A DNA stretch of 64,000 nt from Tubulanus polymorphus (lineage: Eukaryota > Animalia > Nemertea), in NCBI RefSeq assembly GCF_964204645.1, contig NC_134034.1, positions 7,414,914 to 7,478,913 on the forward strand. Reading direction: 5' to 3'. The translations under genes and the position numbers were made by a program. Shown piece after piece: positions 1 to 44,545 of the stretch (the stretch's first letter is position 1; each line of letters begins with the position of its first letter). The notes under the pieces were generated by a model, which ran no database searches, was not told where the DNA came from, and worked only from the letters and a program-made list of their open reading frames with translations.

Positions 1-316
1 TTGGGTTTTAGTTCAACATTTTAGTTGAGTAGTTTATGCATGTATAGTTTTGACTGGAAGACAACACCGTTGGGCGAATATCTCAAATATATAGAAGGAA
101 AAATATCGAATTGTGTTCGGCCCAGACTGCAGATCGATTCCTATGTACTGTCAAGGCTTCTAATGCAATATCTCGAGGCCCCCACATCGCTGCTGCAGAC
201 CAGATCTTTGATGCAGAGCCCAACATACGAATGACCTTTTCAGCCCTACACATACATATATCTGGCATTCTATCATATCATTTAATGATAATTACTGAAG
301 TACTCGACAACCACTT

Positions 317-1845
317 TTTGGGGAAAAGCATATTGAAATATTATATTTTGATTCTGTAACAGCTGACACCCCAATATTATTAAAATGTAATAATAAAATA
401 TTGGTAAGAAGAATTTCAGAAATAATTCCAAAACAAAATGAATGTTATATTTCATATAGTGAAAAAGAATTAATACAAATAAATGGATTAATGGATGTTT
501 GGACAAGAAATGGATGGAAAAAATTAAAGAATATTATTAGGCATAAAACAAATAAGAAAATCTATAGAGTTAGAACTAAATTAGGATTTGTAGATGTTAC
601 TGAAGATCATAGTTTAGTTAAACGAAATGGCGATGAAATAAAACCAACTGATATAAAAATTGGAGATGAATTATTACATAAACGATTTTTCCAAAGAATG
701 AATCATATGTCATTTGATGAAATAATTGATAATATTTATAATATAGAACCCGAAACATTAGAAGAAAAAGAATATTTTATCAAAGGATTTCTCATGGGTG
801 ATGGTTCAGCAGGTGTGTATAATAATGTTTGGGGTAATTAATATTGTTGGTATTTATGCAATCAAGACTTAAAATTATTAGAAAGAATTATAAAATTCTG
901 TGAAGAAGTTTATTCACATAAAACATTTAGAATCATGGATGTTATGAAATCAACAGCAGTTTATAGAATACTTGTAAATAATCCTAAAGATTTTGCTATA
1001 AAATATAATGATGAATTCTATATTCATGCAATAGTGAAAAGTAATACTTCAACAAAAGAAAAGATAGTTCCAGATTATGTATTAAATGCAAAAAATAATT
1101 TAAGAAAGTGGTTCTTCATTGGATTCTATGCCGCAAAACAATATCCTTTGCTCAAAAAGGAAAAGTTGCTATATCAGGATTGAATATATTATGCAGTTCA
1201 TTAGGATTTAATATGAATATAGAATTAATTAAATCTAAACCAAAATGTTTTAATTTAAGGCATGTAGAAAAAGAATTAACAGAAGAAGTTAAAGATTTAT
1301 TTGAAATATATAACCCAACTGACTATGTTTATGATTTATCAACAGATGATGGAACATTCAATTCTGGGTTCCCATTAATCCAAAAAAATACCGACAGTTA
1401 CATACTAAAAATCAAGACAAATGATATAACAAAAGACTTAAAAACATTAAAACATTATTTTGATTTTAGCAATTATCCCAAAGATCATGAACTATTTAGC
1501 AATGATAATAAAAAGATTCCTGGTAAATTTAAAGATGAATTAGGGGGTGATGAAATGATTGAATTTGTTGGGATAAGAAGTAAAATGTATAGTTACAGAA
1601 CAAAAGATCATGAAGCTAAAAAGTTAAAAGGAATAACAAAACATGTGGTTGATAAACATATAGAATTTCAAGATTATATAAAGTGTTTATATAAATCAAT
1701 TGTAATGAAACACAAAATGAATTGTTTAAGATCGGAAGATCACGAGATGTACATTAATGAAGTTGAAAAAACTAGTTTAAATCCATTTGATGATAAAAGG
1801 CATATTTTAGATGATGGTATAAAAACATTACCTTATGGTCATTAA
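317..1845 (+). pseudogene. Protein-primed family B DNA polymerase, C-terminal part with intein
   Basis: EILYFD-[intein]-TDSYIL, then PGKFKDE, EFVGIRSKMYS, KKLKGI, FDDKR, TLPYGH*. Stop at 839-841 and frameshifting deletion near 1135. Confidence 0.92.
353..1389 (+). mobile_element. Intein with LAGLIDADG homing endonuclease in pPolB motif C (degenerate)
   Basis: Block A SVTADTPILL directly after YFD; block B VDVTEDHSL; endonuclease motifs FIKGFLMGDGS and FFIGFYAA(DG deleted); block F YVYDLST; ends IQKN followed by T of TDS. Confidence 0.92.
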
Positions 1846-3158
1846 AACATAAAATCAATATCATCATAATCGAAATCACTATTGGCTTCTTCATTTTCAT
1901 TTAATTGTTTAGGTTCTTCTTCCATTTCATTTTTCTCATTTAAATAAAGTTCTATCTTGTTCCACATTTCATCTCGCTCTCTTTGTTTCGTTTTGTTTGT
2001 TAATTCATCAAATGGAATTATAATATCTATGTTTAAATAATTTACAATCTTATTTAAAAAGAATTCATAATTTATTGAATCTGTTATTCTATTTTCCAAA
2101 TGATACATTAATATTTGTTTGAATATTTTTTTTATATTTTTCATATCTTCTTCTGTTAATTTAGGTTTTTCATAATAATCGTTAAATAATAAATATAAAT
2201 ACATTTTCTTTTGTTTTGTGTTAAATGTTGACGGAATAATTGTTTTTATAATATCTTTTTTAGTTATTTCACCATTTTTATTTTCTATTATTTTCATTTT
2301 TTCAAGCCATTGCATATATTCTGGTGTATGATCTTCTATAGAAAATATTTTAAAAATTTCACCAAAATAATTTAATTTTGGATCTATGAGAAAATTTCTA
2401 GTTTTTTCTTCACCCAATAAATTCTTTTGCCATCCACAATCATTACAAAATAACACAGTACCTTCTTGTCTTAAGGTCACATAATTACATTGTGGGCATT
2501 TTCGTTTATAATTTATTGGTAATAGATCTTCATTAAGCTCTTGGTATTTTCTTACGTTTTCTTTATGTTTTATTGTTCTATTATGTAGATTTGAATTACT
2601 TGTTGTAATAATCAATTTACAATATTTACAATAATATGTTTTCCTTGTTAATTCATTATATTGTTTTTCTAACTTTTCAACTGTTTCTTTATTATCTGGT
2701 AACGTTTTCTCATATTTTATTTTTTCTAATAAATTATTTTTTCTTTCATTAAATTCAGTTTCAAATTTATTAGAAATTTTATCTATATGTACTTTACGAA
2801 ATTGATGATTCTCCCAATCTTCTATATTTTCAGGGCTATATTTTATTCGACAAGGCTCACAGAAATGATCTTTTATATTATCCTTATCATAGAATAAGAA
2901 AGGTCTTTTCCAAATAACTTCAGGTTCAACTTCGGCAGAATTACTATTACTTTCATTACTATCAACATTAGCCGTTGCGCCATTAATTCTACGCTTCTCT
3001 GAATGTTTTTTAACATAATTTCTTGAGAATAATTTATTACATTTTGGGCAGTTAATTTTAGGGGGTTTATAATTTTCATCATGTTTTTTCATATGTCGAG
3101 CCATATTTCTTTTTCTTAGAAGTTCACCACAAATTTCGCATGCTATCTTCTCATCCAT
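1842..3158 (-). CDS. Multi-zinc-finger protein with C-terminal VLTF3-like (poxvirus A2-type late transcription factor) domain
   Basis: Intact 438 aa. N-terminal C2H2/matrin-like fingers, zinc ribbon CPQC-x12-CNDCG, and C-terminal SINYEFFLNKIVNYL...KQRERDEMWNKIELYL, which resembles the VLTF3 C-terminal consensus. Confidence 0.6.
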   Translation of the reverse strand: MDEKIACEICGELLRKRNMARHMKKHDENYKPPKINCPKCNKLFSRNYVKKHSEKRRINGATANVDSNESNSNSAEVEPEVIWKRPFLFYDKDNIKDHFCEPCRIKYSPENIEDWENHQFRKVHIDKISNKFETEFNERKNNLLEKIKYEKTLPDNKETVEKLEKQYNELTRKTYYCKYCKLIITTSNSNLHNRTIKHKENVRKYQELNEDLLPINYKRKCPQCNYVTLRQEGTVLFCNDCGWQKNLLGEEKTRNFLIDPKLNYFGEIFKIFSIEDHTPEYMQWLEKMKIIENKNGEITKKDIIKTIIPSTFNTKQKKMYLYLLFNDYYEKPKLTEEDMKNIKKIFKQILMYHLENRITDSINYEFFLNKIVNYLNIDIIIPFDELTNKTKQRERDEMWNKIELYLNEKNEMEEEPKQLNENEEANSDFDYDDIDFMF

Positions 3159-8376: not shown

Positions 8377-9619
8377 ATGAGTGGGAGTTATATAAGTCCT
8401 TCTAAGATTTCTAGAATATCTAATGCTATTAAAGCAGAAAGATCACATCAGATAATTACTAATAACCCTTCAAATATTAATCCTGGTGAAACTTTATATG
8501 TTAGAATTCATCGATTAACACAAAATACTTTTTATGTTCCAAATAGTATTTATTTATCAGCCGATAGTAACTTGCCATGATAACAATTATGTTGTTGATA
8601 ATGTTGGAAGATATTTGATTAAAAGATTAACTATAAAGATTGTTCCGGAAACAGTTTTCTCATTAGATGATTATAATTTATTTATGCATTATAAAGATTT
8701 ATGGTTAACTAAAGAAAATAGAAATAATATGATATTTCAGGGTATTCAATTGGAAAACCATAATAAATTAAGATCAGGAGCTAATGACGCAATAGTAACT
8801 AATGCTACAGATAATTTGATAAAAAAGATTTATGGAAGCAAATATAAAATTCCATTAGACTTTGAATTGATGAATAATAATGCGCCTTTATACAAATACG
8901 CAATTCAAGAAGATATTATATTCGAGATAACATTTGCTCCTGTAAATGAAATTGTATTATCTAGCATTGTTAAAGATATGGGTTATGAATTATCGAATAT
9001 ATGTTTGGAATTTGATACAGTAACTAATGAAAATATTGCTAGCACAATTCAAACTCAATACAATCAAGGATTTTCATTATTATGTGATTATATTGATAAA
9101 TTTAAAACTGTAACTATTAATGCAAATGATGAAATAATTAATGAGAATATTAACTTCCCAAGAAGATCTATTAAAGGTATATTAATATTTTTTACCATTG
9201 CAACATATTCTAATGGTGCAATAAATGTTGATGATTATTATAATCCTGAAATAACAAAAGTACAAATAACTATCGAAGGTATAGCAAATAAAATATTTTG
9301 CCAAGGAATGAGAATGATAGATCAGTGGCCAGAAATTAGAAAACATTTTATGAATGAAAAAGTAAAATCATTTGAAAATTGTAATATTAATCAAATTGAT
9401 TATTATACCAGCAATAAATATGCATTATGGTTAGATTTTAGAACAACAGAGGATAATTCATTACATGGTTCTGGGGAAAAACTACAGAACACTAAAGATG
9501 GAATACAATTATTCATGACAAAGAATAAAGGAATCAAAAATTTTAAAATGCACATTTATATTATATCTGACGCACAATTAGATATTGTAAATTCACAATT
9601 AGATAGTATTCAATATTAG
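8377..9619 (+). pseudogene. Major capsid protein (double jelly roll), frameshifted
   Basis: Homolog of intact 38416-39663; frameshift near 8570; size and position next to integrase and ATPase. Confidence 0.75.
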
Positions 9620-9649
9620 AAATATAAAGTTAAAATTAAGGATATAGAA

Positions 9650-10777
9650 ATGGGTGGTAAAAAAACTCCTAATACTAAAGAACAATATTTAAGAAATTTA
9701 TATTACAACCCTGAGAGTTCGGTTGCTTATTCTTCTACTAAAAAAATATGGCGTAAAGTAAAACAAGATAAATTATATAAGATAATCCCACAAAATTTAG
9801 TTAAATATAAAGATATAAATGAATTTATGTTAGAACAACCAACATATACAACACTTAAAAAAATTGTTAGAAAATATAAAACTCGTAAAACTATGGTAAG
9901 TTATGTAGATCAACAGTGGCAAGGAGATTTAATTGATTTGAAAAATGTTAAGAAAGATAATGATGATTATTGGTGGTTATTGAATATAATTGATATTTTT
10001 AGTCGTTATGTATGGAGCTTCCGACTTTATAGAAAAGATGCTGTACAAACATCAAATGTTTTAAGAAAATTTCTTTCGGATGATAAACTAAAACCAGAAA
10101 AAATACAATTTGATGATGGAAAAGAGTTTGATAATTCACTTGTTCATGAACTCTTAGATAATCATAATATTAATTATTTTTCAACAAAATCAGATAAAAA
10201 AGCAGCAGTTGTTGAACGATTTAATAGAACATTAAGAACGAGAATGTGGAAATATTTTACAGCAAATAATACTTTTAAATGGATTGATGTTTTACCAAAA
10301 TTGATAGAAGGATATAATAATTCTTATCATTCTTCTATTGGAATGAAACCTATTGATGCTAGAAAACCTGAAAATGCTGGAATTGTTTGGAATAATTTAT
10401 ATGGAGCATTTCTTGTAGATGATTTTGGTGAACCTAAATTTAAAGTTGGTCAAAATGTTAGAATTTCTAAGTATAAAAAGATATTTGACAAAGGATACGA
10501 TCGAAATTTTACTAGGGAAATATATAAAATAAAAAAGGTAATAACAACAAAACCATATGTCTATAAATTAGAAGATTTAGATGGTGAAGAAGTTGATGGC
10601 TACTTTTACGAAGAAGAATTAAGTTTAACTACTGAAAATCTAGAACAAGAATATAAAATTGAAAAAGTATTAAAAACAAAAACTATTAAAAGAAAAAAAC
10701 ATTCTTTAGTAAAATGGGTTGGATGGCCAGATAAATTCAATGAATGGATATTATCAAGTAAAATTAAAAATATATAA
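9650..10777 (+). CDS. Retroviral-like (rve) integrase with C-terminal chromodomain
   Basis: Intact 375 aa. WQGDLID, IIDIFSRY, QFDDGKEF, VERFNRTL (DDE); chromodomain YKIEKVL...VKWVGWPDKFNEWI. Confidence 0.95.
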   Translation: MGGKKTPNTKEQYLRNLYYNPESSVAYSSTKKIWRKVKQDKLYKIIPQNLVKYKDINEFMLEQPTYTTLKKIVRKYKTRKTMVSYVDQQWQGDLIDLKNVKKDNDDYWWLLNIIDIFSRYVWSFRLYRKDAVQTSNVLRKFLSDDKLKPEKIQFDDGKEFDNSLVHELLDNHNINYFSTKSDKKAAVVERFNRTLRTRMWKYFTANNTFKWIDVLPKLIEGYNNSYHSSIGMKPIDARKPENAGIVWNNLYGAFLVDDFGEPKFKVGQNVRISKYKKIFDKGYDRNFTREIYKIKKVITTKPYVYKLEDLDGEEVDGYFYEEELSLTTENLEQEYKIEKVLKTKTIKRKKHSLVKWVGWPDKFNEWILSSKIKNI

Positions 10778-11648
10778 ATGAATAAAGAATTATTTAAATT
10801 TGAGCCTCATAATATGTTAATATCTGGCGTAACAAATTGTGGAAAAACTTATTTTATATTAAATTTATTAGAAACTGTTTATGAAAACTATTTTGATAAT
10901 ATAGTATTATTTTGCCCAACGTATGAATTTAATCAAACTTATGATAGAAATATTACTAGAAATAATAAATTTATTATATTAGATCCTAAAACAGTAAAAG
11001 AAAATTTAGATAATTGTATTAAAATAGCAATTGATATTTATAAAGGATCAAATACATTATTCATTATAGATGATTGTGCTAATCTACATGATTCAAAAGT
11101 TAGAGAAAGTGAGTTATGCTATTTAGCTTTGGTAGACATTTTGGAATAACAACATGGGTTTTAAATCAAAAATATAATTCAATTGTTAAAGACTTTAGGG
11201 AGAATATAAGATTTCTAGTTTTAATAATAAATTTATTATATTAGATCCTAAAACAGTAAATGAAAATTTAGATAATTGTATTAAAATAGCAATTGATATT
11301 TATAAAGGATCAAATACATTATTCATTATAGATGATTGTGCTAATCTACATGATTCAAAAGTTAGAGAAAGTGAGTTATGCTATTTAGCTTTTTCTGGTA
11401 GACATTTTGGAATAACAACATGGGTTTTAAATCAAAAATATAATTCAATTGTTAAAGACTTTAGGGAGAATATAAGATTTTTAGTTTTATTTTATTATAA
11501 AGATAGAAAATCGATGAAAAATGCGCTTGAGGAAAATGATATTATTCCACATGATTTACATAATGAATATATGGATAAGTTGAAAAATATTAAAAGATCA
11601 AAATTACTATTTAGATTACAACACCCATTTAAATATGAATTTATTTAA
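10778..11648 (+). pseudogene. A32/FtsK-like packaging ATPase with internal tandem duplication
   Basis: Walker A GVTNCGKT, Walker B FIIDD, SGRHFGI. About 260 bp (~10961-11222) is duplicated. Confidence 0.9.
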
Positions 11649-12638: not shown

Positions 12639-12961
12639 TTAATCAACAATTTCTAAATCATGATGACCGTCTTCATTTTTTCCATGATAGATTATCTTAA
12701 ATCCTTCTAAATCTTTTAATTCCTCTGTACTCAATGAAACCCATTTATCAGGTAAAAATACTTTAAATTCTCGCGATGTACTAACATTACAGTAGCTTAA
12801 ATTAGCTGATACTTTCTCTCCATATTTAGTTTTTATCTTTTCTAATTTCAATATTTTATGTTCAATTTCTTTTGTAACATCAACTTTTTTATTTCAAATT
12901 GTTTTTTTGCTGGTTTTATTCTGTTATTTATTGTTGCTAAGAATGCTTTTCTATCTCCCAT
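12639..12961 (-). pseudogene. Small protein (TKYG...VFLP), candidate ssDNA-binding protein
   Basis: TAAATG start near 12961; divergent homolog at 55320-55674. Function is inference. Confidence 0.45.
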
Positions 12962-13661
12962 TTATTAGGAAAAGAAATTACTTGTGGTGATGAGTGGGGA
13001 TTACTTCCCCTTGTATATAACAAACACGCTATTAACCGTTCTCACCCAAGCCTCACAGCATCTATTAGGAGCAGTAATTATAACTGTCTAGATAAGTCAT
13101 TTCGGTTCCTTGATATCAAATTCCTCAACGTATTGTTCATTATTTGGATCATTGTTCCATAATTCAATAAATTTCTTTGCCTTTGTTAACTGTTCTAAAT
13201 ATAACTGTAAATCTAGTTTATTATATTTAATTTGATTTTCTTTCCTTTCTAAAGGCCGTAAATTTTTCCAACCCCACATAAGTTTTTTATTGTATTCATC
13301 ATTCCTTTCCATTTATAAGGAAAAAAAATTACTTGTGGTAATGAGTGGGGATTACTTCCCCCTATATAACAAGCGCGCTATTAACCGTTCTCACCCAAGC
13401 CCCACAGCATCTATTTATCCGGGTACAGTTGACACGCAATCACTGTACTACAGTAATAGCACACGCGTTAATAACCGTTCTCAGTAGAGACTCACTGTAT
13501 CGTTCAATCCACGCGCAGATGTTGTTACGCGCACTCACTGTATATGTGTATCACAGAGCAATCGTCCGTTCTCACTAGAGCCTAGCTGTGATGAGTGGTG
13601 TCTCATACTCAATTGAATTATTACTTGTGGTGATGCGTGGTGTTTAGTACTCTAGTACTCT
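12961..13661. repeat. Candidate subterminal/TIR region of family A
   Basis: ~100-bp direct repeat (~12961-13066 and ~13312-13416), short repeats ACCGTTCTCA and TCACTGTA, ending in TAGTACTCTAGTACTCT. Confidence 0.5.
13097..13312 (-). pseudogene. HNH endonuclease C-terminal fragment
   Basis: WKNLRPLERKENQIKYNK, matching 41164-41817. Confidence 0.75.
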
Positions 13662-15584: not shown

Positions 15585-15750
15585 TGAGAAGATACACAAT
15601 ATCTGTGTAAGATGATAACGAGAGAAATCCCACAATAAATGTACGCCTGATGATGGCTAATAGTCTTTAGCCGAAATGTTGCGCAAATATATATCCACTT
15701 CTATTCAAGTTTCTCGTTTGGCTGAATTTATTATGGATTTCTCTCGTTCA
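15585..15750 (+). mobile_element. Penelope-like element end with inverted tail segment
   Basis: Same family as 47639-48171; contains a hammerhead core at 15647-15677. Confidence 0.75.
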
Positions 15751-18700
15751 TTTTCTTCTTCTTACTTGGTGGTCCCAAATCCTCTTCGGAGACAAGTCAC
15801 TTACAACTGTTGTGGATGCCATTTTGTAACGTTCTTATCCACTCACTTGCCATAGTCATGGGAGCATATCGAGCCAGCTAGTGGTGCCGCCTTGTGGAGT
15901 CACCTAACACTTTCGAGAATCTTTATCGACGATCGGCTCACAATACTGACTTTTTAACGAGAATGAAATCATGATTGATCGAAAAATTTATTTTGGGAAT
16001 TTCTGTCTCAACAAATTAATATTCATAATTTTTATACATTAATAGAATGGCATATAAAACAACTAAAACTATGAGTACCTGGGAGCCTGGGTTTCATCGG
16101 AGGTTTTTCATTATCATACGGCTCAATTAGGACAGGAGCGCCCAAGTCTATGCAAATTTGAGGCCAGTGCCGGTTACTGACGAAATAAAGTTGACCGACT
16201 GACATGGTTTTTAATAATTCCACGATAGGATTGCTTCAAGTCAGGCAAGGCAGACAAGCTTACATCTTTACTCAGAATCTTTGTTACGTGCGACCTGTGC
16301 CTTGGCCCGCATTATCTTTAACTGATACATACACGCAGTGAACACGAGAGTATAAGGCAATATTGCCTACGCGACTGTACACGACTGTTTTCGTTTCATC
16401 ACTATGCCGCGATTAACAAACTAATACAAATAATCAAAATCTTAGACAAATAAACTCCAAAACGGATGGTTAATGCGAACGTCAATAAAATGACTTCAAT
16501 TAATGATGATAAAAACAATTATTCAAGTCATGTAAATATATCAGACTCATCTTAAGAAATTCGATGCTATCAGCTGATCGGTATCATCAGTGAATCAGCC
16601 GTGTGGCGAACACGGAAGTAAATTTCCGCAAATTGAAACCAGAATTTCGTCAGATATCTGGATGCAACGTTACCTTATGTACTGGATTTCAAAATTAGAT
16701 AATCATTCAATTTAGATTATCATTATATCATAATATGCCTTGAGTATCAGTATTCGCGCTAGAAATGATGAATATGAACCTCTGCAATTGTGCTGCCATT
16801 TTGTTTAGCACCTGCTGTTCCACCTCATTTACATATTCATCGAATGCTATGACGTCATGATCGAGTTCAAACCGGGTCAACACAAATTATACATAACCAA
16901 GATTTTGGGCTGTTTAGTTTAGGCCTACGTCTCGCCTGGACTTAAATGATTTATCGTAGTAAATATCCGGTAAATTTGGTAGGTTGTTACAGTCTATGGC
17001 AAAGTCCTTGTGACATCAGGTAACCTTAGCGATAAGGGTACAAGCTAATTTGGCTCTGGTGGCGCGTCAGTCGTTGCTAAAAGATGCTAAACTTACGGAC
17101 CCAGTGAAGAAGGCCTTATACAGGGCTCCGCTCGGCGATTCGTCTGGCTTGTTTTCCGATTGGTGTGGTCCCGGCTGCAGTCCAGACACAGAAGATCAGG
17201 GAAACTCAGAGTAAGCCCAGAGTGTGGCGTATTCCGAAGAAGTCGGGTGGCCAGGGGACCTCCGGTGTTGATCTGTCCTCCAAGTTGCTACAGAAGTCTG
17301 GTTGGGGTGCAGCCCCTAGACAGCAGTTGGGGAAGCCCGAGGCCCGGAACAGGTCCTTCAAGGGGAAGGGAAAAGGCCCCAAGAAAGGGCAGGGGTTTCG
17401 GAAGTTCGCGAAAAGGACAAGCTTTGACTCGGGTTGTCTCGACCAGGTATCGCATGTCCTTCAGAGAGAGGCCGCCCTTGACCAGGACCCCGGAGGACAT
17501 GAAGCCCAAACAGGGCCAGGAGCTGCACATAGGTCCAGCCATTCAAGAGCTCTGGGACAAAAGGGCACTGGAATTGGTCGAGAATCCAGGGTCTCCGGGC
17601 TGGTACTCGAGTACAGTACCCAAGGCGTCTGGAGGTCTCAGAACGGTCATAGATCTGTCGATGCTGAACAAGTACCTCGATTGTCAAAAGTTCAAAATGA
17701 CCACGCCAAAGGAGATCATTCAAGGGCTACGCCCGGGTCAATGGGCAGCATCCATAGATCTAAAAGATGCTTATTTCCAGGTCCCTATCCACCCCAGCTA
17801 CAGGAAATATCTCCGGGTGAAGTGGAAGGGGGAAGTGTATCAGTTCCGTTCTCTGCCCTTCGGGCTCAGCTCGGCACCCTGGGTCTTCACCAAACTAGTC
17901 AAGGCCGTTCAAAAGAAGTTGCAATCTTGAGGTGAAAGGCTTTACCTGGACGATTGGCTGATAGTAGGGGCCCCTCGCGAGGAGTGTCGCCGCGGAGTCG
18001 AATTGACCATCGGCATGATACAAGACCTGGGCTTCAGAGTCAACACAGAGAAGTCCCGGCTTTCGCCGTCTCAGGAGTTCACATACCTCGGTATGGACTT
18101 CGATTTGCGCCAGGGACGGGTTCGCCCTACCGCAGCCAGAGTACTGAAGCTGTGCCAGGCTCTTCGTTCTCTGTTACAGGGAGTTCCCCACTCTGCTCGG
18201 TATTGGAGCAGGGTGCTGGGTCAGATCAGCTCCATGTCAGCCGTAGTTCCATTGGGCAGGCTTCACAGTCGGCCACTGCAGAGGTTTTGGAAGACCTCGT
18301 GCGCTGCCTTAAGTCTCAGTTGGGATGCGTTTATGCCCCCCCCCCACGCCCCCCATCTGTTGGGCGCCCTTCGATGGTGGATGCTTCCACGGAATGTGAC
18401 GCAGGGAACATCCCTAGCCCCGCTCCAGGCTCCAGTCTATCTGTATACGGATGCGAGCCATTACGGGTGGGGTGCTCACATCGAGGAGTCGCGGGTGTGG
18501 TCGGGCCGGGAGTCGAAGTTTTATATAAACTACCTCGAGCTTCTAACAGTGTTGAAGGCCCTGAGGTTTTTCGTAAAGAGGTTCGAGGGCCGTCATGTTT
18601 CGGTAGTGACCGACAACACGACAGTCCGGGCTTATCTGAATAATCAGGGAGGCAACCGGTCATTGCAGCTGTCATCTCTGGCGACAGAAGTGCTGTTGTG

Positions 18701-18842
18701 GGCTCAAGCCCACAACATTCAGTTGTCGGTGTCTCGCCTAGCCGGGGCCCGGAATGTAGTGGCCGACGCCCTCTCACGTCAGGACAAAGCTATCCCGACG
18801 GAATGGGTACTTCACCAGTCTGTAACAGGGTCAAGGCTCTGA

Positions 18843-19215
18843 CGGGCCACCCTGTATTGGATCTTTTTGCGACCAGGTTCAACGCCAGGTGCCCGGTGTT
18901 CGTATCCCCATTTCAAGACGCAATGGCGTGGCAGGTGGATGCCCTGTCGATAGATTGGGAGGGTCCGCACGCTTATGCGTTTCCGCCCCCTCTCCTCTGC
19001 TGAATCAGGTGCTGTCCAAGATCGAGGACACGGAGTTGTGCAACGTTCTCCTGATAGCTCCTTGCTGGCTAGCTCAGTCGTGGTTCGTGAGGCTGTTACA
19101 TTTACTCTGCGACCATCCCAGGCTGCTTCCTCAGGAACCGTCTCAAGGGCGGTTTCGTCAGTACCCCAACCTGCAATGCCTCAATCTACACGCTTGGCCA
19201 CTGTCGAGCGATCCT
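18843..19215 (+). pseudogene. DIRS DNA adenine methyltransferase-like domain
   Basis: VLDLFATRFN...DALSIDW...YAFPPP...LLIAPCWLAQSWF, frameshifted. Confidence 0.75.
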
Positions 19216-19756
19216 TGCAGACTCAAGGTTTTTCGTCGGCATCTGCCAAATTTATCCTGGGGTCTAGGAGGTCATCCACTGGGGCCCAGTATGATTCCAA
19301 GTGGCAGCTGTTCCAGGATTGGTGCGGTGGGCGACAAGTTGATTGTCTCTTACCCGCTGTAGCAGATGTGGCGGATTTTCTCCTGTTTTTGTTCCATGAC
19401 AAAGGTCAGCAGGTGGTGACTATCAAGGGCTATAGGTCGGCTATAGGGCACACCTTGAAGGCCGCAGGTCGTCCATCGGTCACAGATGACCTTAGAATAG
19501 CCCAATTAATTGCGGGTTTTTCGATTCAGCGGCCGCGGTTGTCAAGAGATATTCCTCCTTGGATCTGACTGTGGTTTTGAAATACTTGATGGAGCGTCTA
19601 TATGAGCCATTAGAAGTTCTTTCTTTGGCCAGACTGACCAGGAAGACTGCTTTCCTTTTATGCTTGGCTATGGCAGCTCGGAGGTCCGAGCTCCATGCTC
19701 TGTCGGTGAGGCCTGGTCATGTGGTTTTTGGTCCACTTGATCACTCGGTCACCTTG

Positions 19757-22700
19757 TCTGGAGGTTAAAGAAGTGAAGGTAAAACCCTGAAACATATTGA
19801 GAAAAATATACTCCTTAGATATAAATGCCTAAATCATACTTATCAGATGTAGAAAGAAACTAACACTGGTATCATGGAATTTGACTAAGTCTATTCAAAT
19901 CAATCAGATAAGTAAAACTGGTAAAACTGTTCACATTTAAAACAAAATATTTACACTTGCACATGTTAATAGATGTCCATAATAATACTTTCTAATCTAG
20001 GCAACACAAAGAAGGATACATTGCACTTCTTTTTATCAGCAGTTACCTTCAATATTTCCATTTAATACAGATTAATCATAGATTATCTATCAGATTTTGA
20101 AAAAAAAACATATTTATATTTGCACTGATTAATTAAATTTACTTGTACATTGCATAACTTTGAGTAGTTAGTCAAAATCAATCAGATTAAAGTAAAACTA
20201 TCCAAATTTTAAAACAAAAACATTTTAACATTTGCACAAGTTAATTAACGACCTTAATACTGTATAGACTAAGGCAACACAAAGAAGAATGTATTGCACT
20301 TCTTAAAGTCCTTATCAGCAGGTTACATTACAGATGAATAGATTTATAAACATATTTAAAATTGCACAAATACATAAAACCGCACAAAAACAACTTACAT
20401 CAGTGTTCCTTTATCAAAAGCAATTTATGCTAATCACCGGTAAAATATTCAATGGATACAATAAACTACTATATTTGAAACTTATCATCAATGGTTTGAA
20501 ATAAATCAAGTCAATCATCAATTATATTATTTAAAACCATTCTCCTGGCATTTTGTCTGCTGAATGTTGCTATTACCCAGTCGATAAAGCCTTCTTTAGA
20601 GGTAAGTCCATAATGGACATGCATCAATGCTAAACCATTCATTCTGGACTGGGTCATGGTGCTTCTCAAATATGTTTTGAGTAGTCCAAGTTCAGAGTTT
20701 GCCCGCTCACACTCACAGCTTGTCACACCTAATGTGCAAACTAGTTTCAGCATCATAAAGATATTTGGAAAGTCGTCCTCATTACATAATTTCAATGCCT
20801 GAGCTGCAGTATTGGGTTTCTTGTCATCTTTCCCTAGATTAGCAATGACTTGAGAACAATGAGTTTTCCAGAGGAGGAGTTCGGAACTTATACCGCATGG
20901 GGATGGCAAATCTTGTTTGTACTGATTGATGAACGATTTCAGATCATTAAGTGTGGTATTCTGCACATTTGTTGGAATTAACTTCAGTGGCTCTGAAGCA
21001 ATGACACTCAATGTAGAGAATCTGGTTTCTAGTCCACTGATAAGACCATCTATGTATGGAATAACAAGACTTCTCCTATAATATTCTTCAGGTGTATCAG
21101 CAGGATAATTTCCACGCTGAGTTTGACGGTTGCAGGTACGTGGTTTTGATGGTGCTATGCCATTCTGTGCTGCCAAATTTGTAATCTCCTCAAACCAGCT
21201 ACTAAATACTGCATTTATATCTGAACGAACCGATTTGATAGTTGCCTTAACAATTTCAATGCTGTTGTATGCTGACAAGATATCTTCAGATCTGCCTCGA
21301 AGCTTTTTTGAAAGCCCTTTTGTATAGCCCATACAGTTTTTGACAGTAATCAGGGTCACAATGAACTGGAATTGTGTTATAGCTGCCAAAAGCGTCGTGG
21401 CATCACTGGTGGTTTCACGGTTGAAATTCTGTGAGGTTGACATATCGCTGAAACATCTTTCAATCGCTGGATAGAGCTCAACAAAAACCTCGAATGCATC
21501 GTGTCGCTCAACAAAACGGGTCCTACACATTTGTTTCAGTCTCTGTTTCGTTGAAGGGCATACCTCTTTGATCACATTTTCCAAATAATCTGTTCTTTTG
21601 GGGCTATTGTCGAAGAATTTATAGACTTTTTCTGCACAGTCCACCATATTTCTAACTAATGTGCTTTTAGCACAGTCGTTGAGAATCAAGTTCAAGCAAT
21701 GACTGTAGCAGTGAGTGTACACTGCAAGTGGAAAATCAGCAGTTATTCGAGCAGCACATCCGCTTTGAGCACCAGCCATTCCACCAGCGCCATCATATGT
21801 TTGACCCCTACAGTTTTCGAGGGACAAACCCCAAGCTTCAAGGGTTTTCTTAATTATTGAAGACAATCCCAATCCAGTTGTATCACTTGATACTTCGACA
21901 AAGCCAAGAAAAACCTCTCTGATATCTTTGTTGCAATCAACAAATCGCACAACCACACTTAGTTGTTCACTGTGTGAAGTGTCCGCTTTTTCGTCAGCGG
22001 ATATAGAGTAAAATTGTGAGCTTTTGATTTCATTAATCAAATCTCCGACAATTTTATCGCCAATGGCCAGGATTATACTGTTCTGGATTGTTTTTGAACG
22101 GTATGTGGCATTTTTTGGTCCGGTGGCAAGGTAATCCGAGAGAACAGAATCCCCAGCATCCATACGGAAATCAATTAATGCCTGGAAATTTCCGGAATTT
22201 ATATCAGGATCACTTATGTGTCGGGAATCATCTCGATGGCCCCGCAGTGCTATATTCTGTCTACCACAAAGTAAGACAGTTTTTATCACGGATGATAAGA
22301 CAGTACGGTTTCTTTCTATCTTTTCTAAAGCATTCTTATTACTCAGCTCCACGACAGTTTTTTGCTTGTTTTCATGTACATTTAGAAACTGCAATACCTT
22401 TTCATGTGCCTCAAGGTGAGTTTTTTTTGGTTCCTTTTTATCAGTTCCGTAATGAGCCCCTAATCGAGCATGGGTGTGTTTCATATCCGTCAATGGAGAT
22501 GTAGATAGTATTCCGAGATCACTTGACCCAAACAGACAACAATATATACAATACCCGCCTTCTTTGGCCTTTGAATATACCAGGCCTGCATATTCCTTTT
22601 TAGTTAGCCAATCTACACTAAACCTCCTGTTCTTATTTTGGTATAGAGTCGTCGGGAAATTGTAATTTTCACCAGGAACGAAGTGTTTCCGTAATAATTT

Positions 22701-23535
22701 ACACTTTTCATCGGCATTAAGGCTAGCTATGTCTTCAATTAATCCAATATCACAATTATCAGATGGAATCGGAATGTCATTTTTTGTTCTTTTGGGTGCG
22801 GGTGGAGGGGTGAATGTTTCATCAGTTCCCTGTTTTCTTACACTAGCATCTAGACCGGTACTTGTGGATCCAAAGAACGAAGAAATACTCGTCTGCTTTT
22901 TCATCTGCAAAATAAAAAAACACACAAATGAGAATAATTCAACAAATTCGCATATGATAATCACGATCGACTCATCACTGGTTCGTCAAGTTGAAAAATT
23001 GGCAGAAAGCTTGCAAGCCAATGTCTATTTCACACTTCAAAAGTAAAATCAGAACTGGCCTTATCTATGATAAACATTCAATTATAAATACATCATAGCT
23101 CCTTGATAATGGTACATGTAATTAGTAATAGTCCGCGACTACTTCAACTTGAGGCCGAGGGGATTTTTCACAGACTATTTAATATATACAAATGTCAATA
23201 TTTCTCTTGTGGGCTCACATAATTTAATGCAATCTATATACACAGAAGAATAAATAATAGAACTTTACAAAAATATAATTATACATACCTTAGAAGCGTT
23301 ATATAAGTTAGATGATCATTTTATTGCGGCAGAGAAATTATTTTTTACATGCATTTACTTCCTAGTGGCTGGTTTACATCCAGTTGAGCAGAAGGCATAA
23401 GGGTTCGAATCCCAAATATCCCCCCAAAAAATTTTTTTTTACTCATTTGGCTTGAAAAGGTAGGTCCAATTTTTTTTCCTGTGACTTTTAGGGGGGAGCA
23501 CGTGCCCCGCGTGCTCCCCCCTAAATCCGCCACTG
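19757..23535 (-). mobile_element. hAT DNA transposon inserted in the DIRS recombinase gene
   Basis: Terminus CAGTGGCGGATTTAGGGGGG on the minus strand from 23535. YR reads SVTL before the insert and LRPGLGFLAKNQ after it. The other TIR is missing. Confidence 0.88.
20511..22904 (-). CDS. hAT transposase (ZMYM1/PRKRIR-like), open ORF
   Basis: ALRGH, SADEKAD, QTYDGA, HCYSHCLNL, C-terminal dimerisation motif TSCECER. ATG at 22904 follows a splice acceptor-like TTTTGCAG. Confidence 0.92.
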   Translation of the reverse strand: MKKQTSISSFFGSTSTGLDASVRKQGTDETFTPPPAPKRTKNDIPIPSDNCDIGLIEDIASLNADEKCKLLRKHFVPGENYNFPTTLYQNKNRRFSVDWLTKKEYAGLVYSKAKEGGYCIYCCLFGSSDLGILSTSPLTDMKHTHARLGAHYGTDKKEPKKTHLEAHEKVLQFLNVHENKQKTVVELSNKNALEKIERNRTVLSSVIKTVLLCGRQNIALRGHRDDSRHISDPDINSGNFQALIDFRMDAGDSVLSDYLATGPKNATYRSKTIQNSIILAIGDKIVGDLINEIKSSQFYSISADEKADTSHSEQLSVVVRFVDCNKDIREVFLGFVEVSSDTTGLGLSSIIKKTLEAWGLSLENCRGQTYDGAGGMAGAQSGCAARITADFPLAVYTHCYSHCLNLILNDCAKSTLVRNMVDCAEKVYKFFDNSPKRTDYLENVIKEVCPSTKQRLKQMCRTRFVERHDAFEVFVELYPAIERCFSDMSTSQNFNRETTSDATTLLAAITQFQFIVTLITVKNCMGYTKGLSKKLRGRSEDILSAYNSIEIVKATIKSVRSDINAVFSSWFEEITNLAAQNGIAPSKPRTCNRQTQRGNYPADTPEEYYRRSLVIPYIDGLISGLETRFSTLSVIASEPLKLIPTNVQNTTLNDLKSFINQYKQDLPSPCGISSELLLWKTHCSQVIANLGKDDKKPNTAAQALKLCNEDDFPNIFMMLKLVCTLGVTSCECERANSELGLLKTYLRSTMTQSRMNGLALMHVHYGLTSKEGFIDWVIATFSRQNARRMVLNNIIDD

Positions 23536-26426: not shown

Positions 26427-27257
26427 ATGTACTCTCCGGTTATCTCATCGTCACCTAACGAAAACAGTCTTCATATAACTTATGCACCTGTAAAACGACG
26501 TTATCAGCAACAAAATACGGATACATCAGTACCAAAGGAGAAGAAAAGTAAAAAGAATCTTGATATAGGTATGTATTTAACTCTCTCAGATTTTTTCAAC
26601 TTATATTCTCAATATCAATTCGGGTTAGTAATCTATCCTAAATCTTATCGTTTCAGGAGATACAGCAACACCGAATTCTCTGAATGATAACACTAGCAAA
26701 TCGGAAACGCAGTTTTATCTAGGAATGCTAGTTTATGTCAGTCCTACTACGTGGAACGATACGAAAAGAATTGAAATTCGACATTACGATTGTAGCGCAA
26801 AAGGATGGGCATATCCGACCAAAAATGGAATATCTCTATACATTCAAGAGTGGGTACATTTAAACTTTTGCAAAATGGAAATCGACAACGCAATCGATCG
26901 CGCTAAAGCTGGTGACTACGACTCTAGCGTATCCAGTTTAGGGAGAGATAATTACGTTAAAGTCTACAAATCTCGAGAGAGCCACCGCGTGTACGTTGAT
27001 ATACGATATTATCGTTTCGTCGATGACAAGGGTACCAGAGAAGCGACCAAAAAGGTGTTAAATTGTCTCTTGCGCAGTGGAATAATTTGAAAGATATTGA
27101 CTTAAGCGATATAATACCCCAACTCAAAACTACCAGACCATGTATATTCACTCTTTTTAATCGGGAAGACTTTTGCTGTTTCTGTGCTACTAGAGACATT
27201 AGTGTTTTCGAGAAGATACGTGAATGTCCCGAAGTAAACAATCCTTCTGATATCTGA
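26427..27257 (+). pseudogene. Spliced tandem PC4-domain (ssDNA-binding) gene
   Basis: IEIRHY...PTKNGISL...EW and YVDIRYY...ATKKGVKL...QW. GT-AG intron 26569-26656 joins exon 1 in frame; frameshift near 27055. Confidence 0.75.
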
Positions 27258-27599
27258 GTTACTTATTTTACATATTCGCATATTATTGTAATTACTTTGA
27301 AGAATAAACGAAAATGTCCTTTTTTATTAAATGATAACGAGCGTATTTTCTTTTACTCATGGGAGGAGTGCTCAAAAGGATCGAAGGCGGCAACGAGAAA
27401 AAAAACAACAAATTATTTTCATGGTTGAAATATCATATGTTCACGTTTTATTCTTCATAAAAGTTCTTATGAGAATATTTACACAAAGTCATAACAACAT
27501 TCACATGGAGATAGCAAAGTAACAACGGAAGCAACACATTTTCTTGGTAGAAATATGAAAATTATATGTTTTTTATTCCATGGAAACAATAAGCTATGA

Positions 27600-28150
27600 G
27601 AATATTTACAAGATAATTACAAACTCAGTTCTTTATTGCATCAAAAAAAGATAATTACAAACTCAATGGATTAGATTAATATATAAAATATAATGCTAAT
27701 ATTTCAGTTCTTTATTGCATCAAAAAAAGATAATTACAAACTCAATGGATTAGATTAATATATAAAATATAATACTAATATTTCAGTTCTTTATTGCATC
27801 AAAAAAAAAAGATAATTACAAACTAAATGGATTAGATTAATATATAAAATATAATACTAATATTTCAGTTCTTTATTGCATCAAAATAAGATAATTACAG
27901 AGTACATACATTACAATAATATCTGAAATAAAAATGCAATACTAATATATCAGTACTTTATTGTGTTAAAAACAGATAATGATACAAATAAATATCAATG
28001 TAATATCTGAAATAAAAATGCAATACTAATATTTCAGTTCTTTATTGCATTGAAAGATAACTACAAATTAGATACATTACAATAATATCGGAAATTAAAA
28101 TGCAATACTAATATTTCAGTACTTTATTGAGCCAAACAAAAATATTTACA
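27600..28150. repeat. ~70-bp AT-rich tandem repeat, about 8 diverging copies
   Basis: Recurring ATACTAATATTTCAGTTCTTTATTGCATCAAAAAAAGATAATTACAAA. Confidence 0.85.
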
Positions 28151-28549
28151 AATAAGTAACTACAAATTGACTAGATAGAACTCATGTCCCTAAATTGTAT
28201 GATGCCATTAGAAACGTAATAAACGGTACATTATCGGTCGCCTATATAATATTATTAAGCCTAATTAACTATAAGTATATCTCCCATCCCCCGCTCCGAT
28301 AGCTGACTGACAGTTCTATGCGTATTGAAAGATCGTTAGTAAATCATCGAAGCAAGCAAACAAGAGATGAAAAAATCATTTCGCGCAAACCCGTTTTGTT
28401 TAGTACTTCTGAGACCAATGTTACGAGGCAACTTTCCAGCTACCACTGTGCGCAAATAAACTGAGTTTACTGTCCAAGAGCCAAGACGGAGGTAAATTTC
28501 CAGCTTATCGCGGCAATGAAACTGAGTTTACTGTCGCAACATCAGAAAC

Positions 28550-29910
28550 TAGTAACCAAACGGTAATGTGTTATATCTATTACCCGGATCAAATGCCCTT
28601 TTTGTGTACACGGCGCGGTAGGTTTTGGTCTCATCCTTGTTATAAATTATCCCCTCCTTATATCTCGTTTAATTGTACCCGGATTATTTACTAAAAGCTT
28701 CTCACGGGTATCGTCGGTGATTAATTTAAGCATAGATTTGAAATTGACGACTTGACTATTTCTGTAATTCAGATTTATCCCCTTGACTTTGCATTCATAC
28801 GAATAACGGTTCGTCTCCGTATCAAGGACTTTAAAGCTGTAATTTTTAGGTCCCCCCGAAACAAATTCAGTTATGTAGCAATTACGACCGAGCTCGTCTG
28901 TCATGTCGCCTAAGAAGTTACCAGTTTCTGGTTCCCATTCACCAGGCTTTACGGAATAGATGATCGAATCAGTGTCCGTATAAAGGGTTCGATCCCCTAG
29001 CTTCTCCATGTATGTATACAGTATGAGTCGAGCGTGAGCAGTTGTAAAAGCAGCTATGGCAACGTTTGTTCGACTGTTTGGCTTGACAAACTCAGACTTT
29101 GTTTTGTAATGTACACGGAGTACATCATCGTTACAGATGATTATGTCCGAAATTTCAACCGTCGAATCGAGAATCAACTCGTAAAAGTCCGAAATGTATT
29201 TCGCCGAAGTTTTGTTACTATTCTGACCAAATTTCCCCCACATACTGTTCAGACATAATTTTGCGACTGTTCGCAGACCCGGAATTTTTTCAATCTTATC
29301 CCCATCTAATTGGATACCTTCCCGCGCCGCGTATTCCGCTATATAGTTTAGTCTTTCATCGTCGGACATATCGCCCGATGGCCACCCACTAGATTCCGTC
29401 TTAACTTTCAGAAATTTATCGATGTACGACTTAAATAGACCAGTTCGGTTATCGGACCAATGCCAAACTTCATGTAAAGAAACAATTTGATAACCCATAT
29501 CAAGGGCTTTGATTACTTCCAGGGTTACCCACTCGCCCGTCAATTGCCTCTCCCTGTCAGTATGTTGGCACGGCGCGTCCTGATTAATTTCATCCACACA
29601 CGTTCGGCAAAGTGGGAAAGTGAGTTTCCCACCGGACCTATATGGTAAGACCGGCAGGAATAATTTCCGCGGTGGAAGTACACACTTGACTAATCCGTAA
29701 TATTGCCGTATATCGCCGAAGTTTTCTGTTACAACAGTGGGATGGCCTATTGGATAGCTATATCATGAATTTACAAATGGATATAGCGAGCAAATGTCAA
29801 TGTATTTTATTCTCTGGTCCTCGGATACTTTATGATATAGTTTTATCGCATTTGTTCGGCCACCGTTAAAACATTCACGAGGTTCAAGTGGGGGCAATAT
29901 GTCCGACGAT
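28550..29910 (-). pseudogene. Family B pPolB C-terminal half
   Basis: GGRTNA, YIDICSLYP, KLCLNSMWGKFGQ, uninterrupted LYTDTDS, GPKNY, KVKGI, TLPFGY*. Confidence 0.9.
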
Positions 29911-31390
29911 TGTACAAATTGTACAAGGAAAGCGTTTAATCATAAGGAGGCACATCCGTGTTTCGATCACTGTCGGTTGTGTATCGGTGTTGGTTGTAAA
30001 GCGGTGAATTCGATACATTGCAATAGATGTAACATCTATTACAAGGGACAGGGGTGCTACGCCAATCATTTGAAAAGCTTGGCTAGCGGGATTTCGTTGT
30101 GCGACAGTCGAGCGAGGTGTAGGGCATGCGGTCAATTTGTAAAACGCGAAAAAATCGCCTCAGCCGACCACGACTGCGGTATTAAGTATTGCTCGGCGTG
30201 TCAAGAAAAACGACCCATAGGACACTTATGCTATATCGGTGTCAAGAAAAACGACACACACGTCGTTAATACCGAGGCGGGTGTCTTGATAAACCCGTAC
30301 CTCCAGGGAGGGAAAGAATTCGATGCTGAGTCATTGAAGGTAAAGAAATTCGTAGCGTTTGATTTTGAGACTACGACAACGGAAGATTCGATTCATAAGG
30401 TCATCTTTGGAATGGCACACCGTTGTTGCCAAGAGTGCAAGTTTTCGACTATAACGAGCGATTCAGAATGTGCCCATTGTGGTAAGAACGAATTCAAGTT
30501 CCAAAATGAAACGGAATTCTGTGAGTGGTTATTCAATGACCAAAATAGAGGGGCAACCGCATTCGCCCACAATTTTCAATCCTTCGACGGATATTTTATT
30601 TTGAAGTATTTACTAGACCAGGCAATTAGACCTGAGATTATTCCGAACGGCGGTAAAATCATGTATATGTACGTCCAGCAGCTGGATTTGAAAATATTGG
30701 ATACGCTTAATTATTTACCGATGAGACTAGCTAAAATACCTAGCACTCTAGGTTTACGCGAATTGAAAAAGGGGTACTTTCCCTACAAGTTTTGTACGGT
30801 AGAGAATTTGAATTACGTGGGTGCGTTGCCCGCTTTAGAAATGTACAATCCGGATGGACTCAGTAGTGGGGAGAGGGAGAAACTTGTTGCCTGGTACAAT
30901 TCTCAGAAAGGTACTGTGTTTAATATGCAGCAAGAGCTAACTGATTACTGTAGATCAGATGTGGACATTCTGATGAATGCTGTTGTACATTTCCAACAGC
31001 TCCTATTCGATCTATCGGGTATCGACCCGTTCCACTCATCCATCACGATAGCTTCAGCGTGTAATGAGGCCTTGAGAACCTGTTTTCTGGAACCAAATAC
31101 AATCGCTTTGCTACCACCCGGTGGTTATAGACCGAACGCTAATTTTTCAAAGATGGCCATCATCTGGTTGAGATGGGTTTCGGAAAAGCAGGGTATCAGG
31201 CTAAAGCACGCGCTGAACGGTGGTGAGGAGAGGATCGGTAAGTACTCGGTAGACGGATACGACGAGGCGACAAAAACGGTATACGAGTTTCACGGGTGCC
31301 TATTTCACGGGTGTCCCAAATGCTATAGTAATCCCCGTATCAAGTCTGCGATCAGACCGACCCTAACCATTGGAGAATTGTACCAGGCAA
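29911..31390 (+). pseudogene. Family B pPolB N-terminal half (Cys-rich, exonuclease, VSR-like insert), inverted
   Basis: FDFET, AHNFQSFDGYF, KGYFPY, YCRSDVDIL, VDGYD...YEFHGCLFHGCPKC. Confidence 0.9.
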
Positions 31391-32755
31391 CTGTTAAAGA
31401 TGCTTATCCTTTGCCCAGAATTGATGATTCTATCCGTTCGTTATCGGGTGCAAGGTAATTTTGTACCATGGACATAGCTTCAATTGCCAGAAGCTATCTG
31501 AAAAAACTTGTAGTGAGAAATGGACTCTATCAATGCAACAAAATGCCGTTTGGTCTATGTAATGCTGGAGCTACTTTCGAACGATTGATGGAGCAAGTTT
31601 TGGGTGGTTTGCAAAATGAAATCTGTTTAATATACTTAGACGACATGATAGTTTTTGGGAAGGATTTTGATTCAACTTTACATAATCTGCGACAAGTATT
31701 TTCAAGACTAAGACATGCTGGATTGAAGCTTAAACCGAAAAAGTGTCACTTTTTCAAACGTTCAGTACTATTTTTGGGACATATTGTGTCGGAGTCTGGA
31801 GTTTCCTGCAACCCGAGCAAGGTGGAGTCCGTAGCCAATTGGCCAGTTCCACAGTGGCAGATTGACGTTAGATCATTTCTTGGATTAGCTTCCTACTACA
31901 GACATTTCTGCGAAAATTTCGCTACTATCGCAAAACCGTTACATAGCCATACTGAGAAAGGCCATCTATTCGCTTGGGCTGATGAATGCCAAACGTCATT
32001 TTCTTCATTGAAGAGTATGCTTTCTTCAGCTCCGGACTTAGCTTATTTCACTCCAGGGTTGTCGATTATTCTAGATACAGACGCTTCTGGAGTCGGTTTA
32101 GGATGATTTTTATCCCAAACTTATGATGGTGTAAGAGAGTTGTCGCCTATGGTAGCCGTACCCTATCTAAACAAGAAAGAAATTATTGCGTGACCAGATG
32201 AGAATTATTAGCAGTAGTCACCTTTATAAAGCATTTTTGACATAACCTATTAGGATCGAAATTTCTACTTAGACCAGTCCACGGATCTTTGAGATGGCTC
32301 ATGTCGTTCAAAGATCCTGAGGGTCAGGTCGCACGCTGGCTCACGGTTTTGGCGGAATAAAATTTTGGTATACAACACCGTCCGGGAATAAATCACTTGA
32401 ACGCGGATGCTCTGTCCAGAGGGGAATGTGCACACTGTCTTTCTGCTTCGAAGAGAGGAGACTAAGCCGTATCTCCGTGTAACGTAGCATCTAGTAGTCC
32501 ACCCAATAGTGTTGGAATCTCTACTGCTCTGTCTAGCACAGGCCTAGTCACTATTTCTTGTCTCAATTTGGACGAATCTTTTCCTTGTTAGAGTATTGCT
32601 GAAGAACAAGAAAAGGACACCGAATTTTCATGGATAGAAGCAGCGCTGAAGAGTGGAAAACCATCGTGGCAGGATGTATCACATCGTGATGATAAAAGTA
32701 AATTTTATTGGTCAAGGTGGCAAGATTTAGAAGTTTCCAACAGCGTTTTATACAT
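31388..32755 (+). mobile_element. Ty3/Gypsy pol fragment (RT, RNase H)
   Basis: KDAYPLPRID, MPFGLCNAGATF, YLDD, LDTDASGVGLG; degenerate downstream. Confidence 0.9.
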
Positions 32756-44100: not shown

Positions 44101-44545
44101 GCTAAAACACCTAAGTAAATGTTGTTGGTGTTTACTAAAGAAATATGTGAAATTTGAAATTATAAATTATTCTGAATGAAAAGAATATAGGAATGAAAAC
44201 TGATAAATGAATTATGGATTTTTAACTTAATTATGATATAATTTTTAATCAAATTAGTAATCAATTACCATGTTAATTGATTAACAAATTCAAATTCAAA
44301 TATTCATTTTAGCATCACACCCCACCCAGTGCTGCCATCTTTCAATTTAAGAAAAAACTAATAATAAGAAACGACTGTAATACAATATTCAAGTAAAAAC
44401 TTCAAATTAAAAAAAACAAAATAAATTTAAAAAAATAATGAATATCTACATCCGAAATGACTTATCTGGACAATTTAATTGCTCCGCATAGATAGACAAA
44501 AGTAGTGAGATATTCAATTATTTTTTTTGCTTTTTTTCCAAAATA

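Follow-up and report, generated by a model that had tools for sequence, protein, structure and literature searches.

How does an intein come to lie in the catalytic motif of a virus-type DNA polymerase in an animal chromosome, and how does it persist there? Inteins are stated to be absent from metazoan genomes in the available text of PMC8529194. The window analysed here (the whole stretch of 64,000 nucleotides) carries two copies of an intein-like insert in a DNA polymerase of family B that is protein-primed (pPolB). The reading that is quite probably correct is that of an intein in the pPolB of a Polinton within an animal genome, predicted to splice, probably derived from a giant virus and likely persisting by homing.

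Structure of the inserts

In copy 1, on the forward strand, six-frame translation places the end of YFD at 352 and the start of SVTADTP at 353. The insert comprises 1,037 nt (353-1389, +), closes with a terminal Lys-Asn pair (KN) ending at 1389 and is followed by TDS, exactly as claimed in the preliminary description, which placed a second copy at 56221-58458 (-). The Hint N-part of copy 1 begins with the first Ser and includes TEDH at 599-610; the first LAGLIDADG motif lies at 776-808, the second is cut at about 1135, and block F (YVYDL) is found at 1324-1338. Copy 2 runs from 58458 to 56221 on the reverse strand and has both LAGLIDADG motifs. The motifs and ends lie where they had been placed, but both copies are broken by stops and frameshifts and copy 2 also by an insertion.

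The reading frame of copy 1 is interrupted by a stop at 839-841 and shifted by a deletion near 1135, which cuts its second LAGLIDADG motif. Only 46 nt of polymerase remain upstream of its intein, an N-extein remnant at 307-352 (+) that ends in the YFD of motif C, the gene being lost upstream of 307. Its C-extein (1390-1845, +), starting with TDS, is 84% identical to the intein-free metagenomic polymerase of L004, its closest relative. The intein of copy 2 is found in two pieces, 58458-58152 and 56979-56221 (-), with one stop and frameshifts, separated by a foreign insertion of 1,172 nt (56980-58151; GC 0.37 vs 0.22-0.25). The GC of this insertion is host-like; the insertion matches no identified family and has no second copy within the window. 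A decayed N-extein of copy 2 (58459-59913, -) was recognized by tblastn with P0002 (57% identity over 612 residues including the start of the intein), and its C-extein, with one frameshift (55704-56220, -), is 85% identical to the intein-free P0150. The exteins of the window copies are 57-62% identical to P0002, which passes PF03175. Both window copies are decayed and not functional.

Profile searches for Hint and LAGLIDADG domains, proposed earlier as a check, bore out the identification at the level of NCBIfam: TIGR01445 (intein_Nterm) scored 31.6 and 27.0 bits in the two copies (cut-off 24.5). Pfam scores of the window pieces were below cut-off (Intein_splicing 26.4 bits, cut-off 35.8; LAGLIDADG_3 18.5, cut-off 22.5); among the relatives, P0143 passes Intein_splicing, and LAGLIDADG_3 is above cut-off in P0002, P0004, P0143 and P0146 and below it in P0003. 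Two LAGLIDADG helices with acidic residues were recognized, both motifs being present in copy 2 and in eight relatives, and both acidic active-site positions of the endonuclease are kept in all eight unbroken clusters. An AlphaFold2 model of the unbroken relative P0003, made from a 51-row alignment, had a pLDDT of 77-97 per block across the intein, with much of the polymerase part at low confidence. Foldseek matched this model best to the endonuclease-bearing inteins TliVMA (E 6e-15) and PhoVMA (2e-14), and further to PI-PfuI, PI-SceI and I-DmoI (the latter at an rmsd of about 3). A PDB sequence search gave weak intein matches only (E 0.002 and 0.006), a PHROGs search gave nothing useful, and Rfam and tRNA searches of the window had no matches.

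The class 1 set of residues (Ser1, TxxH, block F Asp, terminal Asn and +1 Thr) is present in both window copies, and the splicing residues are kept in nine of the nine pPolB rows examined (ends and block B). The penultimate residue is Lys, not His, as in Mimivirus; Lys occupies this position in 88 and His in 60 of the 168 inteins extracted from the relatives. Penultimate His is common in class 1 inteins and not required. The insert is thus confirmed as a full-length LAGLIDADG class 1 intein at the YxD/TDS catalytic site of a pPolB. It is predicted to splice itself out and to restore the DTDS needed by the polymerase: Ser1, the TxxH histidine, the block F Asp, the terminal Asn and the +1 Thr would run class 1 splicing, a prediction that follows established class 1 intein chemistry. 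The persistence of many unbroken full alleles was counted as indirect support for splicing.

The carrier element and its host

Pieces of about four copies of a single AT-rich element (GC 0.22-0.25) occur in the window and are 88-96% alike along most of their length; motif C is retained in only two of them, and the intein is present in both. Element 1 has a major capsid protein-like ORF (8519-9619, +; homologues at 38416-39663, +, and 48170-49310, -), an rve integrase with a chromodomain (9620-10777, +; homologue at 46673-47302, -; Pfam rve above cut-off in both) and an A32-type packaging ATPase with an internal duplication (10778-11648, +; homologue at 45847-46365, -; Pox_A32 above cut-off). 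Capsid_N reached E 7e-4, below cut-off, on the 48969-49310 piece, and Atlas look-alikes of the capsid-like ORF, of low recognition value, scored 0.96-0.98 among viral clusters. For an adenain-like maturation protease there was no Pfam match among 66 ORFs and no motif match, the copies being decayed. As to terminal inverted repeats and a target-site duplication, short end-like repeats are common to 12958-13128, 42630-42716 and 44450-44512; no paired ends were resolved, all copies being truncated or nested.

Polintons are defined by a pPolB together with a retrovirus-like integrase in the available text of PMC8502044, and Polinton-like viruses in the strict sense usually have no such pair in that of PMC5499653. 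As both the polymerase and the rve integrase are present, the element is a true Polinton (Maverick). The earlier label "Polinton-like virus" does not apply in its strict sense.

Several other features accompany the element copies. Downstream of the copy-1 polymerase, a zinc-finger ORF (1842-3158, -), common to L004 and missing from copy 2, marks a swapped module. A self-complementary stretch of 501 nt at 97% (47637-48137) interrupts element 2 between the integrase and capsid genes, and pieces of it recur at 15586-15757; another self-complementary stretch, of about 285 nt at 78%, lies at 60431-60715. Tandem 24-nt units occur inside an element-3 ORF (39863-40054).

The DNA that separates the element copies has a GC of about 0.39 and contains a hAT transposase, fragments of retroelements and a second pPolB. 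Two retroelements are represented by reverse transcriptase and RNase H fragments, one at 17091-19568, which is GC-rich (0.52-0.56) with overlapping frames, and one at 31459-32106. The second pPolB, unrelated, GC-richer and of the P0004 class, has an empty motif C and is found in two oppositely oriented pieces (28647-29762, -, and 29836-31458, +), so the P0004 class occurs, empty, in the same genome. It is adjoined by tandem units of about 79 nt (27564-28155), and an ORF with a PC4 single-strand-binding domain, above the Pfam cut-off, lies nearby (26632-27090, +).

An animal host, presumed in the preliminary description, was borne out by the hAT transposase located between the Polinton copies (20511-22985, -): 778 of its 787 residues (99%) are identical to P0451, a Tubulanus polymorphus protein encoded on a 14.3-Mb record, the next best of 237 matches being 52% identical, and the other named matches among the 120 listed are from animals. 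On account of this transposase identity, the host is very likely the nemertean T. polymorphus or a close relative.

Four sequencing runs, made on two samples in a single study, contain more than half of the sequence words of 300-1850. A different study provided raw reads under the same species label (12% of the run, at 85% likeness); in these the stretch occurs at about 240-fold depth, with 196-260 over the intein (383-1053) and 268-503 in the C-extein, and none of the pieces listed extends across the entire stretch. A marine-metagenome run with a word share of 0.07, which gave only 3 short pieces, was left aside. For a genome size of 313-358 Mb, as given in the available text of PMC8468679, this depth corresponds to roughly 38-43 copies of the intein and 63-73 of the C-extein in each haploid genome, an estimate that is rough in that it takes the reads to be of that species and uses depth without single-copy calibration. 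At the position of the stop codon, 165 of 206 reads do not have the stop, hence the decay is private to some copies, and 352 reads run on into polymerase sequence before 307.

Intein-free alleles, a search for which had been suggested earlier, were found among the same reads. Thirty-five reads with 24 start points join 350 to 1388 and skip exactly the 1,037 nt (the joint may slide by 4, a range that includes the exact junction); removal of the insert thereby restores motif C of the pPolB, as had been claimed. In a further ten reads the site is empty but written in other codons, and another five have a similar joint. Because the 35 reads skip exactly the insert, full and empty alleles coexist in the species.

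Distribution of the intein

A search with the copy-1 piece, with X at its stop, matched 459 longer proteins at E≤0.001, the best with 61% identity over the whole query. The best three of the 120 listed are pPolBs (P0002, 61%; P0003, 45%; P0004, 44%) and the rest RNA-primed PolBs; the Mimivirus PolB is among the matches, with 39% identity over the query. A further search, for which the query was P0002's C-terminal part, brought in P0142-P0146 and the cut-off P0156. From 570 proteins, 168 complete inteins were extracted by pattern, 20 with pPolB flanks and 148 with RNA-primed PolB flanks; all 168 end in Asn before Thr, and the 20 pPolB-flanked ones form eight clusters at 90% identity, all at the same site. 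Among 54 metagenomic pPolB loci, one had the intein, 42 had an empty DTDS and 11 gave no motif match. Searching viral_contigs with P0002 gave 57 pattern matches, none of them confirmed as a relative, and the 80 loci kept from an alignment scan had intein matches, with YGD-type flanks where the pattern was readable (76/80).

Judged from these sequences, the intein marks a small clade of Polinton polymerases, of at least nine lineages, with signs of long residence. The earlier proposal that an integrating virus imported the intein into an animal genome is sound in its animal host, but not as a one-off import into this animal; at least nine lineages carry the intein.

Many PolBs of 670-800 residues (P0036, P0058, P0065, P0069, P0071, P0083, P0085 and others) start approximately 65 residues before the intein site, which suggests a polymerase divided between two genes, with the break just upstream of motif C.

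Kinship with giant-virus inteins

The pPolB inteins fall among giant-virus PolB inteins, with 37-49% identity, while the polymerases themselves can barely be aligned. Unrooted intein trees were made from 157 rows (12 near-copies removed, window copy 1 added) and from subsets of 61 and 41. Seven pPolB inteins, including that of the window, form one clade (100/100) inside the giant-virus-type PolB inteins, in agreement with the NCLDV-type origin proposed for it; the inteins of P0145 and P0146 sit apart, with other PolB inteins (95/93). Two independent entries into pPolBs, that of P0145/P0146 and that of the other seven, were hinted at by three trees, but the AU test does not reject a single clade (p 0.17). 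The seven-intein clade joins PolB inteins with the same C-terminal signature (support 0.84, 89 and 90/93), a link that a tree of 233 rows did not show (another grouping had support 0.46 there), and the stem under the pPolB intein clade is long (0.42). Five of six looked-up giant-virus MAGs with the signature were found in the PMC8575486 supplement, as far as available, all assigned to Imitervirales IM_01, Mesomimiviridae. Named inteins with RNA-primed PolB flanks are those of Mimivirus and of giant-virus MAGs.

These sequence comparisons make the kinship of the pPolB inteins with giant-virus inteins firm. The direction from giant virus to Polinton, also part of the earlier proposal, is graded lower, as likely, the tree being unrooted and the donor branch unstable. 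The first entry would have come from the RNA-primed PolB of a giant virus by way of the YxDTDS codons, the only stretch that the two genes share, a route that requires the two viruses to have met in a cell, though this need not have been an animal's. The intein would then have stayed for long in one pPolB subclade, with at least one jump to a second pPolB class, and the integrase of the element would have delivered it into animal chromosomes.

The exteins were compared on a tree of the first 70 of 102 dereplicated rows, from 155. On it the eight intein-bearing rows need eight changes, seven of them forced by starred branches, in keeping with a patchy distribution; the exteins of P0145 and P0146 belong to a starred clade that also includes a polymerase recorded under the name Mytilus galloprovincialis. 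The intein and extein trees have their main split in common, and in six type-A lineages the intein and extein identities correlate (Spearman 0.72, 15 non-independent pairs). This correlation suggests that the intein has resided there for long and has moved mainly between near relatives, and vertical descent would give the same. In P0004, a member of the other pPolB class, the intein shares 42-49% identity with the others and the exteins only 23-28%, a contrast that suggests one jump between pPolB classes.

Probable mobility of the intein

In the mechanism proposed, the endonuclease would cut motif C where it is empty in the polymerase gene of a close relative, and repair templated by a full copy would then introduce the intein with some flanking DNA. 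Such homing would involve Polinton genomes of close kinship, whether as copies already integrated or as viruses that co-infect a cell.

Three 90%-identity clusters hold both full and empty alleles: P0143, P0003 with P0128, and P0146 with P0269/P0275. The P0143 cluster has 136 members; the contigs of the 15 listed measure 57 kb to 1 Mb, which is what a eukaryote assembly with numerous copies would be expected to give. When seven full and four empty full-length proteins of this cluster were compared, all ten fixed differences fell between -7 and +44 residues of the site, with none in the remainder of the approximately 1,190 residues, and the distant 891 residues did not separate full from empty. 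The intein itself showed 1-16 differences in 346 residues, and the far extein 1-16 in 891. Clustered differences of this kind may reflect co-conversion of flanks during homing, or survival of cleavage-resistant empty alleles, those of this cluster reading DTDA or DCDS, and either would imply a working endonuclease; they may also come from plain recombination with a sister family. P0259-P0263 and L006 are empty alleles with a non-standard motif C (DTDA, DCDS), possibly representing escape from cleavage.

Between the two window copies dN/dS was 0.24 (p 0.004) in the Hint N-part and 0.32 (p 0.0008) in the endonuclease, values indicative of purifying selection on the intein. Silent divergence was 10% at 353-1135 (22/218 codons) and 36% in the last 90 nt of the intein (8/22), with 36% in the C-extein (39/108) and 4/14 in the short N-flank. 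The two C-exteins come from different sublineages, each nearest an empty relative. A clean homing tract between these copies was ruled out by the diverged last 90 nt of the intein. Since the end of the intein is as diverged as the C-extein while its first three quarters are young, the copies are best read as crossover mosaics of two lineages that already had the intein.

It is unlikely that the intein, although splicing, has ceased to home, having entered once and been inherited with the element, with the empty alleles arising through recombination with sister families or precise loss. Such a history would accord with the shared main split and the correlated identities of the intein and extein trees, with the crossover inside the intein of the window copies, and with the diversity of the P0143 intein, which is not below that of the far extein, unlike the outcome of a single recent sweep. 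It fits less well with the endonuclease dN/dS of 0.32 and the acidic positions kept in 8/8 unbroken clusters, or with fixed differences that hug the site in P0143; the P0004 jump needs mobility at some time, and, as most of the nearest relatives are empty, many precise losses would be needed.

A different source, whether a cellular or other viral family B polymerase or a passage from Polinton to giant virus, seems very improbable. The unrooted trees, the long stem (0.42) and the unstable sister group leave room for it, and protist DNA polymerases with inteins exist according to the available text of PMC10710043, none by name in the set compared. Against this, 148 of the 168 inteins are flanked by RNA-primed PolBs and are far more diverse, the named ones belong to Mimivirus and giant-virus MAGs, and five of the six signature MAGs are Mesomimiviridae. 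That the AT-rich elements belong to a symbiont, a food organism or a free virus and were mis-assembled into an animal contig is scarcely credible. Their GC of 0.22-0.25 does differ from the approximately 0.39 of the flanks, the closest empty relatives are from metagenomes, and no long read or contig among the matches listed spans element and host DNA; but the copies show decay and nesting, the host-matching hAT lies among them and host-like DNA breaks into them, and the stretch recurs in two samples of one study and at about 240-fold in the reads of another.

Comparison with known systems

The same motif-C site is used by the Mimivirus PolB intein, whose class 1 residues are listed in the available text of PMC549080, which confirms the correspondence drawn in the preliminary description. 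As in the pol-c (YGD/TDS) inteins of Mimivirus and other giant viruses and of archaea, so far as these are described there, the insertion point, the Ser...Asn/Thr ends and the two LAGLIDADG motifs are the same. Unlike in Mimivirus, the host protein is protein-primed, with flanks that barely align with Mimivirus PolB (17-30 bits), and the carrier is a 15-kb-scale integrating element in animal chromosomes, not a lytic giant virus of protists. The lengths are close, 337-354 residues here and 351 in Mimivirus. Ribonucleotide reductase is the host protein of the Chilo iridescent virus intein. The latter, cited in the available text of PMC549080, is likewise an intein in a virus of an animal and therefore a precedent for splicing in animal cells, although it is of the glutamine type and resides in a non-integrated iridovirus of insects.

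Nuclear scaffolds of algae and labyrinthulids that carry viral DNA polymerases with inteins, and inteins of Anaeramoeba, are described in the available text of PMC10710043. There too viral polymerase inteins were endogenised into eukaryote nuclear DNA with viruses as vectors, but those polymerases are giant-virus-like and the hosts algae or protists, whereas in the present case a Polinton acts as vector in an animal host, and tens of copies occur together with empty targets in one genome; "animal" and "metazoa" are absent from the main text of that article as available. In nematode Polinton pPolBs, HNH and VSR nuclease inserts are described in the available text of bioRxiv 10.1101/2023.08.22.554363, in which "intein", "LAGLIDADG" and "homing" do not appear; one sentence seen in PMC11071308, citing that study, takes such inserts as perhaps derived from intein invasions. 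These are likewise nuclease domains inside Polinton polymerases, but without a described splicing domain in the text available, in contrast to the Hint domain, splice-junction residues and split catalytic motif found here. The element itself resembles the Polintons, Mavericks and adintoviruses of PMC8502044, as far as described in its available text, in its pPolB and rve integrase, A32 ATPase, capsid-like ORF and many decayed germline copies, and differs from them by the intein in its polymerase. The word "intein" is absent from the main text of that article, from the vertebrate, coral and pPolB-mining surveys, and from PMC8097293, PMC11131425 and PMC13215967, in the portions available; PMC12220804 and PMC3671162 mention inteins in general only, in theirs. 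No earlier report was found in the literature searched, in line with the novelty supposed at the outset, although subscription journals, Repbase, intein databases and survey supplements could hold one.

Concluding remarks

The locus presents a canonical intein in a new class of host protein and a new genomic setting and, in the literature searched, the first complete intein in a protein-primed polymerase. It provides a counter-example to the absence of inteins from metazoan genomes, with the proviso that the gene in which it lies belongs to an endogenous virus and is not a cellular one. It also offers a testable case of homing between genes with only about six codons in common and a marker of contact between giant viruses and Polintons, which bears on whether animal Polintons are, or were, virophage-like. 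With tens of full and empty targets per genome, homing in an animal nucleus becomes readable from sequence, and a small endonuclease and an intein evolved in animal cells may serve as tools. A bolder extension, tentative and somewhat short of an even chance, is that the homing intein, derived from a giant virus, is active, now or recently, in animal germlines, where it would be converting empty Polintons, and that it records a Mesomimiviridae-like giant virus that at one time occupied the same cell as Polintons of marine animals. If so, it would amount to a natural gene drive that relies on protein splicing and is restricted to an endogenous virus.
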